This document shows, one piece after another, positions 39,511 through 44,809 of a DNA stretch of 64,000 bases (positions are counted from its first letter, which is position 1; each line of letters opens with the position of its first letter). The notes beneath the pieces were generated by a model. It saw only the letters and a program-made list of their open reading frames with translations, was not told the DNA's origin and searched no databases. The position numbers and the translations under genes are program-made. Origin of the DNA: an uncultured Bacillota bacterium (GTDB lineage: Bacteria > Sysuimicrobiota > Sysuimicrobiia > Sysuimicrobiales > Segetimicrobiaceae); the NCBI GenBank assembly GCA_963804645.1, contig CAWDRG010000009.1, positions 716,693 to 780,692 on the forward strand, read 5' to 3'.

Positions 39511-40686
39511 GTGACAGACACCGTTGTGACAGACGTGGAAGTGACCGATCCCCTGAGTTCGTTCGACAGCCTCGCACTTCGCCCGGAGACTTCCCGGGCC
39601 ATTCACGCGTTGGGCTGGACCACGCCCACGCCGATTCAGGCCAAGATCATCCCGATCATGACCTCGGGCCGGGACGTCGTCGGGCAGGCCCAGACCGGAT
39701 CGGGCAAGACCGGCGCGTACGGCATCCCGCTCGTCGAGCGCCTCGATCCCGCGAAGCGCACCATCCAAGCCCTGGTCCTGGTGCCGACGCGGGAACTCGC
39801 CCTGCAGGTGGCGGGCGACGTGCGGGCGCTCGGCCGCGGGCGCGGGCTTCGGGTCGTCGCGCTGTACGGCGGGCAGTCGATCGACCGGCAGTTCGCGGAC
39901 TTGAAGCGGCATCCCCACATTGCGATCGCGACCCCGGGCCGCCTCTTGGACCACATGGAGCGGCGCACCGTGAACATCGGGACGGCGGAGATCGTCATCC
40001 TCGACGAGGCGGACCGCATGCTGGACATGGGGTTCCTGCCGGACGTGTCCCGCATCCTCGGCAAGACGCCGAGCTCGCGCCAGACGGCGCTGTTCTCGGC
40101 GACGATCCCGATGGAGATCCGGTCGATCGCCTCGCAGCACATGCGGCTGCCGGAGTGGGTGGCGATCGAGGCCCGGGCACGGACCGTCGAAACCGTCGAG
40201 CAGTTCTATCTCGAGGTGGCGGAAGAGGACAAGGTGAAAGCGCTGCGCCGGCTGATGCGGGACGAGCCGATCACGTCCGGCCTCGTGTTCCGCCGGACGC
40301 GGCACCGTGCCGACCGGCTCGAGCGGGCGTTCGCCCGCGAGGGCGGGGTGGGCGTGATCCACGGCGGGATGCGCGAAACGGCGCGCCTTCGGGCGCTGCG
40401 CGACTTCGAGGAGAAGCGCGTGCGCCTGTTGATCGCCACCAATGTCGCGTCGCGCGGGCTCGATCTTCCCGAAGTCTCCCACGTCATCAACTACGATATC
40501 CCCGAGGACGTCGACACGTATATCCACCGCATCGGCCGGACGGCGCGCGCGGGACGGCGCGGCGTCGCGATCACGTTCGTCGGCCAGTACGACATCGATC
40601 TGTTCGATCAGCTGCAGCGCGGCATCGGGTCCGCACTGCGGCGCCACTCCCTCAATATCTACGAGAGCGGCCACCGGGCGCGTTAG
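39511..40686 (+). CDS. DEAD-box ATP-dependent RNA helicase
   Basis: Q motif, Walker A AQTGSGKT, PTRELA, DEAD (ILDEAD), SAT, and HRIGRTAR motif VI. Confidence 0.9.
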   Translation: MTDTVVTDVEVTDPLSSFDSLALRPETSRAIHALGWTTPTPIQAKIIPIMTSGRDVVGQAQTGSGKTGAYGIPLVERLDPAKRTIQALVLVPTRELALQVAGDVRALGRGRGLRVVALYGGQSIDRQFADLKRHPHIAIATPGRLLDHMERRTVNIGTAEIVILDEADRMLDMGFLPDVSRILGKTPSSRQTALFSATIPMEIRSIASQHMRLPEWVAIEARARTVETVEQFYLEVAEEDKVKALRRLMRDEPITSGLVFRRTRHRADRLERAFAREGGVGVIHGGMRETARLRALRDFEEKRVRLLIATNVASRGLDLPEVSHVINYDIPEDVDTYIHRIGRTARAGRRGVAITFVGQYDIDLFDQLQRGIGSALRRHSLNIYESGHRAR

Positions 40687-41245
40687 CCTCGCCGGGTCGC
40701 GAACGGATCGGGCCCCGACGGCGCATCGCGCGCCGCCGGGGCTCTTCGTGTGTGCGCCCGGTGCGCCGGGGCGGCCCCTCCGCTCATCGCGCGCGAGGTC
40801 GGTCGAGAGGTCGCCGCGCACGTGCACGTCCCCGCGTGCCGGGGCACGGCTCATGTGAGACATCACACCACTCCGTTCGTCTGTATACATGTAGTGATCA
40901 TGCGCGGCGATGTCCGTGCCGCGCGCCGCTCCCCAGGCGGGGGAGCCGTGAGAACGTGTCTCATCGACCGGCCACACACGAGCCCGATCGGATGAGACCG
41001 CGTTCTTGATGGGCGGGGTAGGACGGGTGTTCTGTATGGGGTCAGCGGCGGATCTTGCAACCTATCGCCGCGCCGCGATTCGGGCGAATTCTGGGGCTGC
41101 TCGACGGAGGCCTCTGGTTCTCTCAAAATCTTTCAAGATTCCTCCGAGTTCCAGGAGGAAAAAAGCAAGTAGTGTCGTATGTAGGGTATGCGAGGGCCAA
41201 AATAGGCCCCCCTGGACACCAAATATCGAAAGGAGGGCCCAATTC

Positions 41246-41290
41246 GTGGCAACCAAGAAGAAGGCAGCCAAGAAGGGTAAGAAGCGCTAA
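41246..41290 (+). CDS. 14-aa lysine-rich mini-ORF (candidate leader peptide)
   Basis: GTG start 9 nt after a GGAGG SD. Peptide VATKKKAAKKGKKR carries 7 AAG Lys codons. A GC-rich hairpin lies 24 nt downstream. Confidence 0.3.
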   Translation: MATKKKAAKKGKKR

Positions 41291-41313
41291 ATCGCAATTA
41301 GGTACGGCTTTTC

Positions 41314-41350
41314 CCGGGGGGTGCTGCCCGAATGAGGCAGGGCCCCCCGG
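41314..41350 (+). terminator. GC-rich hairpin (terminator/attenuator-like)
   Basis: CCGGGGGG-(TGCTGCCCGAATGAGGCAGGG)-CCCCCCGG with an inner CTGCC/GGCAG pairing, followed by ACGTTTTCC. Confidence 0.4.
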
Positions 41351-41431
41351 ACGTTTTCCCGGGCGGCGCGCGCATCGCGGCGCGCCGAGGCGGCGGAGGA
41401 TGATGTCCGCTCCGGGCGAAACCTTCGCCGT

Positions 41432-42538
41432 ATGACGGATCCCAGGATCGAGAAGCTCGCCCGCGTCCTGATCCACTACGCGCTCCGCCTGGAACCCGGC
41501 CAGCTCCTGCGCATCCGCGGGCCCGCGCTCGCCGCGCCGCAGATTCTCGCCGCGTATCGTGAGGCGCTGGTCGCCGGCGCGCATCCGACGGTGCGGATCA
41601 GCGTCGAGGGCCTCGACGACATCTACTACCGCACGGCCACGGACGACCAGTTGCGCTACGTCTCGGCGCTCGACCGGCACGAGGTCGAGACGCTCGACGC
41701 GGAGCTGTCGTTTCTCGGCGCCTACAACACCCGGGCGATGACGCGGGTCGATCCCGGCCGGATGCGGATGCGCCGCGAGGCGACGCGGGAGCTGAGCCAG
41801 CGGTTCATGGAGCGGGCCGGCGCGGGCACGCTGCGGTGGTGCCTCACGCAGGCGCCGACCCAGGCCGACGCCCAGGAAGCGGAGATGTCGTTCGGCGAGT
41901 ACGAGGCGTTTGTATACGGCGCGGGGCATCTCGATGAAGACGATCCGGTCGCGGCGTGGGAGCACGTCGCGCGCGAGCAGGCGGCCGTCTGCGAGCGGCT
42001 CGCGCGCATGCGGACCCTGCGCATCGTCGCGCCGGACACCGATCTGACCGTGCACGTCGCCGGCCGCAAGTGGATCAGCGCGGCCGGGACGCACAACTTC
42101 CCGGACGGCGAGGTCTTCACGGGGCCGGCGGAGGACGCGACGCGCGGCACCGTCCGCTTCAGCTTCCCGGCGCTGTACGGCGGGCGCGAGGTCACCGACG
42201 TGCGCCTCGTGTTCGACGGCGGACGCGTCGTCTCGGCGACCGCGGCGAAGGGCGAGCAGCTCCTCCAGGCGATGCTCGACGTCGACGCGGGCGCCCGGGT
42301 CCTGGGCGAGTTCGCGTTCGGCCTCAACTACGGCATCCAGCAGTTTACGCGCAACATCCTGTTCGACGAGAAGATCGGCGGGACGCTCCACATGGCGCTC
42401 GGGGCCGCGTACCCGGAGACCGGCGGGAAGAACACGTCCGGCCTGCACTGGGATATGATCCTGGATCTGCGGGAGAACGGCGCGGAAGTCTTCGCCGACG
42501 GCGAGGTCGTCTACCGGAACGGCCGCTTCCTCACGTAG
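41432..42538 (+). CDS. aminopeptidase, M29 family (AmpS/PepS/aminopeptidase T-like)
   Basis: 368 aa with M29 family hallmarks (LARVLIHYAL, GTHNFPDGEVFTGP, FDEKIGGTLHMALG). Confidence 0.8.
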   Translation: MTDPRIEKLARVLIHYALRLEPGQLLRIRGPALAAPQILAAYREALVAGAHPTVRISVEGLDDIYYRTATDDQLRYVSALDRHEVETLDAELSFLGAYNTRAMTRVDPGRMRMRREATRELSQRFMERAGAGTLRWCLTQAPTQADAQEAEMSFGEYEAFVYGAGHLDEDDPVAAWEHVAREQAAVCERLARMRTLRIVAPDTDLTVHVAGRKWISAAGTHNFPDGEVFTGPAEDATRGTVRFSFPALYGGREVTDVRLVFDGGRVVSATAAKGEQLLQAMLDVDAGARVLGEFAFGLNYGIQQFTRNILFDEKIGGTLHMALGAAYPETGGKNTSGLHWDMILDLRENGAEVFADGEVVYRNGRFLT

Positions 42539-42827
42539 GCCGCTCCCCGCCGCGCGCGCGCTCGACGCGCTCGAAGAGGGCGGCGAACTCGGCCTCGGTG
42601 CGCTCGGTCACCTCCTCCGCCATCTCGGCGTAGCGGCGTCCCTCACCCGCCTTGATCTGGATGTTGGAGAGGACGCGGCCCTCGAGCTCGCGGAGGAGTG
42701 CGAGCACGTCGTCGGCCGGGACGCTCCCCCAGTCGCCCGCGAGCACGCGGTCCACGAACTCGTCGAGCGGGCGGGCGTCGTCTTCGCACACCTGCGCGTA
42801 CAGCTCCCACAGGCGCGCGCTCATTCG
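42531..42827 (-). CDS. hypothetical acidic small protein (98 aa)
   Basis: ATG overlaps the upstream debranching-enzyme stop (ATGA). Acidic, helical sequence. Confidence 0.45.
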   Translation of the reverse strand, partial: RMSARLWELYAQVCEDDARPLDEFVDRVLAGDWGSVPADDVLALLRELEGRVLSNIQIKAGEGRRYAEMAEEVTERTEAEFAALFERVERARGGERPT

Positions 42828-44809
42828 CCTGCGCCCCCGAGTTCCCACGCCTCGAGCAGCGCGGCGACGCTCCACGCCTGGGCGATGCATCCGGCCGCGC
42901 CGTACGGGGACGCTCCCTCGAAGATCTCGCTCACGGTGCCGAGTCCCGCCTCCAGCAGGTGCGCCCGGAACGGCTCGATGAGGCGGCGCGCCGCCGCGCG
43001 GTCGCCGGTCGCGCGCACGAGCGCCGTCGCGTACGGGCCGAGCCACCACGCCCAGACCGTGCCCTGGTGGTACGCCTCGTCCCGGGAGACGACCCCGCCC
43101 CGGTACCGGCCGCGGTAGGCCGGGTCGTCGGGGGCGAGCGACCGCAGGCCGAACGGCGTCAGCAGCTTCGCTCCCACCGCGCCAAGTACCGCGCGGGCCG
43201 CCGGCCCGTCGACCAGCGCGTGGGGCAGCGAGAGCGCGAGCAGCTGGTTCGGGCGGAGCGACCGGTCGGGCGTGCCGTCCGGCGCGATGACGTCGTACAG
43301 GTAGCCGCCGGCGTCGTAGAAGAACGCGCCCGAGAACGCGCGGCGAACCGCGGCCGCGCCGCTGGCGTACGCGGTGCCGTCCCGGCCGAGCATCTCCGAC
43401 CAGCGCGCCGCGACACACAGCAGTTCGTGCCAGAGCGCGTTCAGGTCGACCGCTTTGCCCATGCGCGGCGTGATCGCGCGGCCGTTCACGCGGGCATCCA
43501 TCCAGGTCAGGGCGAGCCCGGGCTCGCCCGCGGTCAGCAGGCCGTCGGCCGGATCGACGCGGATGCCGTGGCGCGTGCCGGACCGGTACCGTTCCGCGAT
43601 CTCCCGGATCGCCGGGTACACTCGCTCGAGGAGCTCGCGGTCCCACACGCGCGCGAGGTACCGGTCGAGCGCGTGCGCGTACCACAACGCCGAATCCGCG
43701 CTCGTGTACTCCGGAGGGGCGCCGTCGTCCGGGAACCGGTTCGGCAGCATGCCCTCGCTCACCACGTCGGCGAAGGAGCGGAGGATCTCGCGCGCGTCGT
43801 CGAGCCGGCCGGTGGCGAGCGTAAGCCCGGGCAGCGAGATCATGGCGTCGCGCCCCCAGTCCTCGAACCAGTGGTAGCCGGCGATCACCGAGTGCCGGCC
43901 GGCGCCCTGGACGAGGAACGCGTCCGCGGCGAGGACGAGCGCGTCGCGGAGCCCGCCGGGCCCCGGCAGCGTCGTGGGATCGCGCGGGAGCGCGCCGGCG
44001 CGGTCGATCAGCGTCTGCTGCCGGCGGCGCTCGTCTTCGTAGGTGGTGCCGGCCGCGGACGCGTCCGGCTCCGCGGAGACGCGCAGGGTGAGGTCCTCTC
44101 CCGGCTCGAGCGACGCCTCGAACACGCCGGGCACGTAGAGGTCTTCGATCGCGTCGAGCCCGCGGTCGCGCTCGACGCGGTGCAGGACGCGCCAGTACCA
44201 CGCCGGGGAGTCCGCGAAGCGGCCGCGGTCCACCGTGAGCGTGTACGGGACGGCGCCGGGCCAGGGCGTGACGCGGATGCCGCCCGGGATCGGCGCGACG
44301 TCGAACTGCCACCCGGGGTCGCCGTAGGTGTGCGTGTGGTGATCGCGCTCGGTCAGGTAGGGCCGGATCGCCATGCGCAGCGCCGGGCCGCCCGGGAGCA
44401 GCCGGTACCGGACGCAGGCGGTGTTCCGTCCGCGCGGCATCCAGACCGCCTTCTCGAGCACGGCGCCGGAGACCGCGAACGTCCAGACGGGAATCGAGCC
44501 GTCGAGCCGGAAGCCCGCGAGCGAGCGGTACCCCTCCGGGTCGATCGTCCCGTCGGCGTACTCGTTCGTCCCGAGCTCGACGAGGCGGCCGCGTCCATCG
44601 CGGAGATCGATCGTCTCGTCGACCTTCGCGACCAGCACGGTGCGGCGGACGGGCGGGGCGAGCGCGGCGACGAGGAGGCCGTGATAGCGGCGGGTGGTCG
44701 CGCCGGACACGGTCCCGGACGCGTAGCCGCCGATGCCGTTCGTGACGAGCCACTCGCGGCGGAGCGCCGCGTCGAGAAACGAGAGGAGGGAGTCCGGCAG
44801 GCTCAGCAT
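42821..44809 (-). CDS. glycogen debranching enzyme family protein (amylo-alpha-1,6-glucosidase, GDE N- and C-terminal domains)
   Basis: 662 aa. N-terminal GDE_N-like region (TNGIGGYASGTVSGATTRRYHGLL) and C-terminal (alpha/alpha)6-barrel region with GYHWFEDWGRD, typical of archaeal-type GDE/GH133. Confidence 0.8.
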   Translation of the reverse strand: MLSLPDSLLSFLDAALRREWLVTNGIGGYASGTVSGATTRRYHGLLVAALAPPVRRTVLVAKVDETIDLRDGRGRLVELGTNEYADGTIDPEGYRSLAGFRLDGSIPVWTFAVSGAVLEKAVWMPRGRNTACVRYRLLPGGPALRMAIRPYLTERDHHTHTYGDPGWQFDVAPIPGGIRVTPWPGAVPYTLTVDRGRFADSPAWYWRVLHRVERDRGLDAIEDLYVPGVFEASLEPGEDLTLRVSAEPDASAAGTTYEDERRRQQTLIDRAGALPRDPTTLPGPGGLRDALVLAADAFLVQGAGRHSVIAGYHWFEDWGRDAMISLPGLTLATGRLDDAREILRSFADVVSEGMLPNRFPDDGAPPEYTSADSALWYAHALDRYLARVWDRELLERVYPAIREIAERYRSGTRHGIRVDPADGLLTAGEPGLALTWMDARVNGRAITPRMGKAVDLNALWHELLCVAARWSEMLGRDGTAYASGAAAVRRAFSGAFFYDAGGYLYDVIAPDGTPDRSLRPNQLLALSLPHALVDGPAARAVLGAVGAKLLTPFGLRSLAPDDPAYRGRYRGGVVSRDEAYHQGTVWAWWLGPYATALVRATGDRAAARRLIEPFRAHLLEAGLGTVSEIFEGASPYGAAGCIAQAWSVAALLEAWELGGAGE

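Follow-up and report, generated by a model that had tools for sequence, protein, structure and literature searches.

We analyzed a 64,000-nt stretch of DNA from an uncultured Bacillota bacterium (contig CAWDRG010000009.1 of assembly GCA_963804645.1), referred to here as the window. Its non-coding gap at 40687-41431, bounded by a DEAD-box helicase gene and an M29 peptidase gene, contains a conserved unit with a Lys-rich open reading frame (ORF) of 14 codons and a GC-rich hairpin behind it. The reading that we favor, tentatively and with somewhat less than even confidence, is a very small translated gene with a SigH-type promoter and a terminator, beside a co-regulated, probably leaderless aminopeptidase gene. 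An original prediction, made from the letters of the window, had proposed a lysine-sensing attenuator at this place, with a structured small RNA (sRNA) as the alternative. A lysine-attenuator mechanism found no support in the structure tests, and it is unnecessary given the aminopeptidase gene's own signals.

The conserved unit spans 403 nt (40957-41359), and an nhmmer profile of 28 versions matches it at E 4e-105. The profile matches approximately 40 loci in high-GC metagenome-assembled genomes (MAGs) and metagenomes, with a single copy in each. The unit is single copy wherever this could be checked, and the 64-kb window contains no further copies. Relatives were retrieved by an aminopeptidase protein search of species-representative genomes. 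The closest show 71-86% aminopeptidase identity and are MAGs labelled "bacterium," "Bacillota bacterium," and "Armatimonadota bacterium." The mini-ORF, its Shine-Dalgarno (SD) sequence, the long conserved upstream stretch, and the hairpin are present in 9 of the 10 closest relatives (L002 to L010). The sequence of the tenth (L001) begins inside the hairpin, and the remainder of the unit is not visible. An exact-pattern scan of metagenome contigs added 31 further true loci and 8 chance matches. The profile had no matches in 69 loci with an M29 gene of 61% identity or less, and no Lys-rich mini-ORF was found upstream of those 69 more distant M29 genes. The original prediction had named a mini-ORF that is not conserved in relatives as grounds for its own rejection; it passed on this point, with conservation at approximately 40 loci.

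The unit is linked to the aminopeptidase gene. An M29 gene lies downstream of it in every locus with enough sequence, except L115. The helicase gene lies upstream in only about half of the loci, and the upstream neighbor varies. With a constant M29 gene downstream and a variable neighbor upstream, the unit travels with the aminopeptidase. Three further short metagenome contigs encode the exact aminopeptidase protein of the window; they hold no transcript evidence.

Several individual contigs have peculiarities. L115 (approximately 990-1554) contains the unit and hairpin and then the middle of an unrelated gene, a fragment of an ATPase-type regulator (...LTLTGAGGAGKSRLALRVAAEV). This contig is probably chimeric. 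L008 (1498-2100, minus strand) and L010 (1591-2130, minus strand) carry an extra gene between the helicase gene and the unit that the window does not have. Its product contains ...RVPRGRVVTYGQLA..., by eye an MGMT/ATL-type DNA-binding domain. Metagenome and MAG contigs that begin or end inside the unit are unusually common (L001, L002, L004, L081, L085, L121, and L122). Their ends lie 5-45 nt before the SD, just past the stop codon, or within the hairpin, and likely reflect branching of the assembly graph at a stretch shared by co-occurring relatives.

The mini-ORF has a clear coding signature. Its SD, AAAGGAGGG (41229-41237, plus strand), lies within the invariant 16-mer ATCGAAAGGAGGGCCC (41225-41240) and is unchanged across all versions. 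The mini-ORF runs on the plus strand from the GTG at 41246 to the TAA at 41288-41290. It consists of GTG, 13 codons, and TAA and encodes the peptide MATKKKAAKKGKKR, that is, M/V-ATKKKAAKKGKKR. All seven Lys codons are AAG. The perfect SD ahead of a 14-codon ORF with seven AAG codons is thus present as predicted, at 41229-41290. The homologues contain 22 distinct DNA versions that encode 13 peptides. The length is only ever 39 or 42 nt, and all length changes are in frame. The start is ATG or GTG and the stop is TAA or TAG throughout. Between GGAGGG and the start lie 7, 8, or 9 nt, and the 5' untranslated region (5' UTR) also has 1-nt indels. Synonymous changes are frequent (GCG/GCA/GCT, GGC/GGT, AAG/AAA, and TCG/TCA). 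The C-terminal Arg codon is CGC, CGG, or AGA, and retention of the residue across these codons makes sense only as selection on the amino acid. Sequence conservation stops at the stop codon of the mini-ORF.

The peptides follow a common pattern of A or T, three to four Lys, two to three small residues, Lys interspersed with G or S, and Arg. The start codon is followed by 12-13 residues, which include 7-8 Lys and one Arg, an enrichment of the kind expected of a leader peptide. The net charge is approximately +8 after Met removal. SD spacing, start and stop codons, frame, and amino acid constraint are all those of a small-protein gene (small ORF). On this comparative evidence, the mini-ORF is almost certainly translated. 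A longer ORF through the 5' UTR, in the frame at 41055-41435, was ruled out, as 1-nt indels break its frame in homologues.

The GC-rich hairpin occupies 41314-41357 on the plus strand. Its arms are CCGGGGGGTGCTGCC (41314-41328) and GGCAGGGCCCCCCGG (41336-41350), with a 7-nt loop, and they are followed by ACG and TTTT (41354-41357). The stem-loop and its short U-tract are those of the original prediction; the stem begins 23 nt past the stop codon and not the 24 nt first given. The energy is approximately -32 kcal/mol, read on L100 and L110, in which the hairpin is identical to that of the window. A hairpin of -25 to -38 kcal/mol is present in all versions, always 18-26 nt from the stop codon. 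Compensatory changes occur at 8 of the 14 pairs (27 versions). Judged from these substitutions, the hairpin is a selected RNA structure. RNAalifold, run on the whole unit and on sliding windows, found covariation only in this hairpin and no other consensus fold. Its status as a terminator is mixed. The hairpin covaries, yet most versions have a weak U-tract (2-4 U in 10 nt); approximately six have a strong one. A consensus scan of 40500-41600 found neither a canonical terminator nor a sigma-70-type promoter.

Two promoter-like motifs of the same architecture lie in the locus, one ahead of the mini-ORF and one ahead of the aminopeptidase gene. The first (41156-41180, plus strand) contains AGGA at 41156-41159, 17 nt, and GTAT at 41177-41180 inside the invariant TGTCGTAT. 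All homologues with sequence at this position carry AGGA-N17(18)-G(T/A)AT, with a -10 element of GAAT in three loci and GTAT in the others. The motif ends approximately 10 nt ahead of the hairpin at the start of the 5' UTR, and the predicted transcription start of the mini-ORF unit lies at approximately 41188-41191. The second motif (41397-41421, plus strand) contains AGGA at 41397-41400, 17 nt, GAAA at 41418-41421, and 10 nt to the aminopeptidase ATG. AGGA-N17/18-GAA(C/G/A) followed by 8-10 nt and ATG or GTG is present in 22 of the 24 distinct regions upstream of the aminopeptidase gene. The first motif keeps a fixed distance to the 5' hairpin, and the second to the ATG. The stretch from the GC-rich hairpin to the second motif is approximately 10 to 170 nt long and is not conserved. 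Among the genes of the window, only the aminopeptidase gene has the layout AGGA-N17/18-GWAN-N7-11-RTG (R, A or G). The SigH-type motif has AGGA at -35 and GAAT at -10 with a spacer of 17-18 nt (PMC12456013). Measured against it, AGGA and the spacing agree in all versions; the -10 element is mostly GTAT, or GAA(C/G/A) before the aminopeptidase.

The aminopeptidase ATG is not preceded by an SD, whereas most genes of the window have one (GGAGG type in many). It is the first possible start in frame, and the start codon across versions is only ATG or GTG. For leaderless initiation in mycobacteria, an ATG or GTG at the 5' end of the mRNA is both necessary and sufficient (PMC4633059). An RTG that lacks an SD and has a -10 element ending 8-10 nt ahead of it is arranged as in leaderless genes. 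The aminopeptidase mRNA is most likely leaderless or nearly so and transcribed separately. With a promoter-like motif of its own, the gene does not need to depend on read-through.

Other readings of these elements were rejected. An RNA hairpin at the motif before the aminopeptidase ATG was discarded because no consensus RNA fold was found just before that ATG. A sigma-54 (-24/-12) promoter at the invariant TTGCAA has, by eye, a spacing that suits some homologues but not the window or several others. An extracytoplasmic function (ECF)/SigW promoter at CGTAT does not fit in its -35 element, also by eye. An upstream ORF overlapping the aminopeptidase start (ATG at 41401) is, by eye, not conserved.

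The 5' UTR begins with a small hairpin (41194-41212, plus strand; GGGCC/AAAATA/GGCCC, then a C-run), which is seen in minimum-energy folds. The C-run (41205-41212) has two other possible partners, the SD and the 5' arm of the GC-rich hairpin downstream. The alternative pairings of the 5' hairpin and C-run are each kept in 93-96% of cells, and their columns are invariant and hence show no covariation. The duplex of the C-run and 5' arm has -26.9 kcal/mol and a z-score of -3.1 (L100, identical to the window over this stretch). When the 3' arm is withheld, the 5' arm of the window folds with the C-run. The SD region can pair with the 3' arm. In the subgroup L006 to L010, L081, L084, L103, L109, and L115, GGAGGGCCC of the SD region and GGGCCCUCC of the 3' arm are reverse complements, with 9-12 perfect pairs (12 in L081), duplexes of -21 to -28 kcal/mol, and z-scores of -2.8 to -5.9. 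Outside this subgroup the complementarity is weak (z-scores of -0.3 to -2), with no covariation in its invariant columns. In part of the family, the stop codon lies in the loop of a small hairpin (GAAGCGC-UAAAUC-GCGUUUC), and part has a 5-bp CCGGG/CCCGG hairpin that overlaps the base of the terminator. The window has neither.

The upstream half of the unit (40957-41150, plus strand) is conserved in blocks. It contains inverted repeats: GAGAAC (40950-40955), TCTCA (40959-40963), TGAGA (40993-40997), and GTTCTT (41002-41007). The block GGACGGGTGTTC (GGACG..GTTC; 41021-41032) follows, then TTGCAA (41055-41060), the direct repeats GATTC (41077-41081) and GAATTC (41086-41091), and CCTCTGGTTCTCTC (CCTC; 41111-41124) with an AT-rich stretch behind it. 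In the window, TCTCA and TGAGA, which are separated by a 29-nt gap, fold together with GAGAAC and GTTCTT into a single long hairpin (40948-41007). In more distant versions, a single local palindrome (TGAGAAC-N3/4-GTCTCA) replaces this hairpin, at the site of its second half. A covariation test of the TCTCA/TGAGA stem gave 80.8% paired versus 77.4% (15 of 500 shuffles). A different long-range inverted repeat had been predicted, between TGTGAGACAT (40854-40863) and GTGTCTCAT (40956-40964). It proved to be a 7-nt complement, a chance match under the 9-nt reporting limit of the inverted-repeat scan. Its left arm, TGTGAGACAT, lies outside the conserved unit and is not conserved, and its right arm, GTGTCTCAT, pairs better with the conserved partner at 40993-40997.

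Two GAATTC-like direct repeats lie 9-11 nt apart in all homologues, and their flanks could form a small hairpin in several. Sites for tandem regulator binding along one helical face would be expected to have this spacing. Compared by eye with the consensus of the CodY box (AATTTTCWGAAAATT), the AT-rich block at 41120-41150, ahead of the proposed promoter, is similar in some homologues, with agreement at 13 of 15 positions in L105 and at 9 of 15 in the window. The blocks at 40957-41150 may bind regulators or may belong to a longer leader RNA.

Under the favored reading, the tiny gene would be its own short transcription unit of approximately 170 nt. Transcription would start near 41188 from the AGGA-N17-G(T/A)AT promoter, which is SigH-like, and the transcript would carry the 5'-terminal hairpin, the invariant strong SD, the ORF of 13-14 codons, and a terminator-type hairpin approximately 23 nt past the stop. 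The aminopeptidase gene would be transcribed from a second copy of the promoter layout, which ends 8-10 nt before its ATG or GTG. The locus would then consist of two tandem units of one promoter class with a terminator between them, preceded by approximately 200 nt of conserved sequence carrying regulator sites. The hairpin would end the short transcript and insulate the second promoter, and it would have no lysine-sensing role. The fixed pairing with the M29 peptidase suggests a functional link, with the peptide as substrate, as regulator, or as a member of a shared regulon.

Several points weigh against this reading. The invariable linkage to the aminopeptidase and a composition like that of the his and phe leaders are expected of an attenuator as well. 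We know of no function for a 13-residue Lys-rich peptide. Both promoters are inferred from motif resemblance, and their -10 elements GTAT and GAAC are each one base off GAAT. The SD region is complementary to the 3' arm of the hairpin (mean z-score of -2.25) and the C-run of the 5' UTR to the 5' arm, so alternative pairings exist. The reading would also leave unaccounted for the approximately 200 conserved nt that precede the proposed promoter.

Two rival readings, which we consider unlikely even when taken jointly, would make the hairpin a terminator controlled by the ribosome. In one, the mini-ORF would encode a leader peptide for Lys or basic amino acids. Under a shortage of charged tRNA, stalling at AAG or AGA codons would block termination, and the aminopeptidase would be expressed by read-through and would release amino acids from peptides. 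The conserved ORF with its coding signature agrees with this, as do the fixed Lys positions among other residues that vary between A, T, S, and G. In composition the peptide is akin to the his and phe leaders. Whatever precedes the unit, the aminopeptidase gene always comes directly after it; the hairpin with the stop codon in its loop, absent from the window, is present in many versions and the CCGGG/CCCGG hairpin in some. One group has the Arg codon AGA just ahead of the stop. AGA is usually rare in high-GC genomes. The tests of the mechanism itself were negative. The predicted layout, with pausing that depends on Lys-tRNA, requires mutually exclusive anti-terminator and terminator pairings, and the fold check found no conserved anti-terminator governed by Lys stalling, nor any in the window. 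The stretch that runs from the last four codons up to the stem pairs with the 5' arm at the shuffled level (mean z-score of -0.54, 32 versions). The hairpin of the window stays in the minimum-energy structure whether a ribosome is modelled at the SD, at one or the other Lys cluster, or at the stop codon. The sole alternative partner of the 5' arm is the C-run, located ahead of the ORF and hence beyond the control of ribosomes stalled at Lys codons. With the last Lys codon just two codons away from the stop, stalled and terminating ribosomes would cover nearly the same RNA. The lack of an SD and the conserved promoter-like motif at the aminopeptidase, the weak U-tracts of most versions, and the absence of such a leader from distant M29 genes also count against it. 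A literature search for lysine leader-peptide attenuators or Lys-rich mini-ORFs returned nothing relevant, and no lysine pathway or other lysine-related gene adjoins the unit. We regard this attenuator as improbable. The other ribosome-controlled reading, which we judge improbable, follows mccA of the microcin C operon, in which upstream sequence lowers the activity of a terminator and a bound ribosome brings it back (Zukher et al. 2014; PMC4231749). The SD region and C-run would compete with the hairpin arms, and a bound ribosome would free the arms and allow the hairpin to form. The outcome would be an abundant stable short transcript and minor read-through, which would fix how much peptide is made relative to aminopeptidase. 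mccA has the same layout (tiny ORF, intergenic intrinsic terminator, and downstream enzyme gene), and both the reverse complementarity in one subgroup and the fold of the window with the 3' arm withheld are in keeping with it. Beyond that related subgroup the complementarity is weak and may just reflect the G-runs and C-runs of the arms; the invariant columns offer no covariation, the local hairpin should win kinetically, and the aminopeptidase seemingly has its own promoter. The M29 aminopeptidase could in principle trim the mini-peptide.

It is rather unlikely that the locus holds a device new for lysine, in which translation of the mini-ORF decides termination at the hairpin through Lys/Arg stalling or SD occupancy. 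Such a device would tie aminopeptidase expression in an uncultured high-GC lineage to translational capacity or to how well basic amino acids are supplied. The approximately 200 nt of upstream sequence would be part of a long structured leader, and the SD would mimic the 5' arm of the terminator. A non-coding sRNA or a cis-acting structured leader such as a riboswitch, with an incidental frame and a purine-rich stretch that acts as a seed or as a ligand- or protein-binding region, is highly improbable. The original sRNA alternative agrees with the shape of the transcript: the predicted transcript of approximately 170 nt has a 5' hairpin, a 3' terminator, and a fold z-score of -2.8. The 5' UTR is conserved as much as the ORF, and the mutually exclusive pairings of G-runs and C-runs around the SD are conserved. 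A purely non-coding RNA is disfavored by the coding signature, with frame, start, stop, and Arg kept through changes that are sensible only if the ORF is translated, and covariation is confined to the terminator. The proposed covariance-model search of the gap also returned no family: Rfam 15 models (including the lysine riboswitch, T-box, and transfer-messenger RNA [tmRNA]) had no match in the window at E up to 10. Searches of seven homologues at E up to 1 had none near the gathering score (the best was CC2171, with 26 bits versus 75). An ARAGORN scan for tRNA and tmRNA found none.

The genes around the gap are well defined. The helicase gene (39511-40686) encodes Pfam DEAD and Helicase_C domains. 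The M29 gene (41432-42538, plus strand) belongs to the aminopeptidase T/PepS/AmpS family (Pfam PF02073, E 6e-89). It is monocistronic, as the next gene, a glycogen-debranching gene (42821-44809), is convergent. Public gene calls include a minus-strand ORF of 97 residues (42531-42824) that shares sequence with the 3' end of the M29 gene and closely follows the gene for glycogen debranching. This ORF has no Pfam match and is putative. A GC-rich hairpin directly after the helicase stop (40710-40777; GGGCCCCGACGGCGC...GCGCCGCCGGGGC, then TCTTCGTG) lies outside the conserved unit and is probably the helicase terminator. A gene for a LysE-type translocator (PF01810; 49908-50522, minus strand) lies approximately 8.5 kb downstream, with no sign of a link to the Lys-rich ORF. 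No reading frame of the gap at 40687-41431 has the excess of GC at third codon positions that is typical of real genes. The gap had been described as well below the local GC. This applies to approximately 41000-41300, where the GC content drops to 50-57%, and not to the gap as a whole. The GC content over 40600-41000 is 67-75%, the same level as in the genes, and the left approximately 300 nt of the gap are coding-like in this respect.

Genes of 13-14 codons escape every gene caller, and few genes so small have comparative evidence this clean, with 22 DNA versions, in-frame length changes only, and an Arg retained in both codon families. Should the peptide be produced, it would rank with the shortest conserved products of bacterial genes, antibiotic precursors aside. 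Its fixed place beside the M29 gene points to a functional link that can be tested. Two copies of one promoter type and approximately 200 nt of conserved sequence offer an entry point to the transcription signals of a lineage represented only by MAGs. Under the rival readings, the locus would supply either the first example of a lysine leader-peptide attenuator or a second instance, unrelated to the known one, of termination under ribosome control.

The unit resembles several known systems in part. It shares with the trpL, hisL, pheL, and thrL attenuators a short ORF (here 13-14 codons) enriched in one amino acid, an SD, a GC-rich hairpin, and an enzyme gene on the same strand. Unlike them, it has no conserved anti-terminator or 1:2/2:3/3:4 arrangement, and its regulatory codons reach within two codons of the stop. 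The downstream gene encodes a peptidase and not lysine biosynthesis or transport, and it has no SD and a promoter-like motif of its own. The likeness to mccA consists of a tiny ORF with a terminator right after it, an enzyme gene downstream, and sequence of the SD region complementary to a terminator arm; an abundant short transcript with minor read-through is plausible here as well. The peptide differs, with 13-14 Lys-rich residues here and a heptapeptide ending in Asn in mccA. There are no MccB-like modification genes, only one M29 peptidase with its own promoter-like motif downstream, and the complementarity is strong in one subgroup only.

Very small, basic, ribosome-bound peptides with their own genes include Thermus bTHX and mycobacterial bS22 and bL37. 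The product of the mini-ORF would likewise be very short and highly basic, and its strong SD suggests high expression. The unit also has a conserved leader, as do autoregulated ribosomal-protein genes. With 12-13 residues, the peptide is half the size of the smallest of these and has no sequence similarity to them, and a fixed place beside an aminopeptidase is atypical of ribosomal-protein genes. The promoter-like motifs are closest to those of the transition-phase sigma factor SigH of Bacillota. Their -10 elements differ, with GTAT (GAAT in three loci only) at the first motif and GAAC, GAAG, or GAAA at the second. They agree with SigH-type promoters in AGGA, a GAAT-like -10 element, and a distance of 17-18 nt, and the arrangement occurs twice in the locus with identical spacing.

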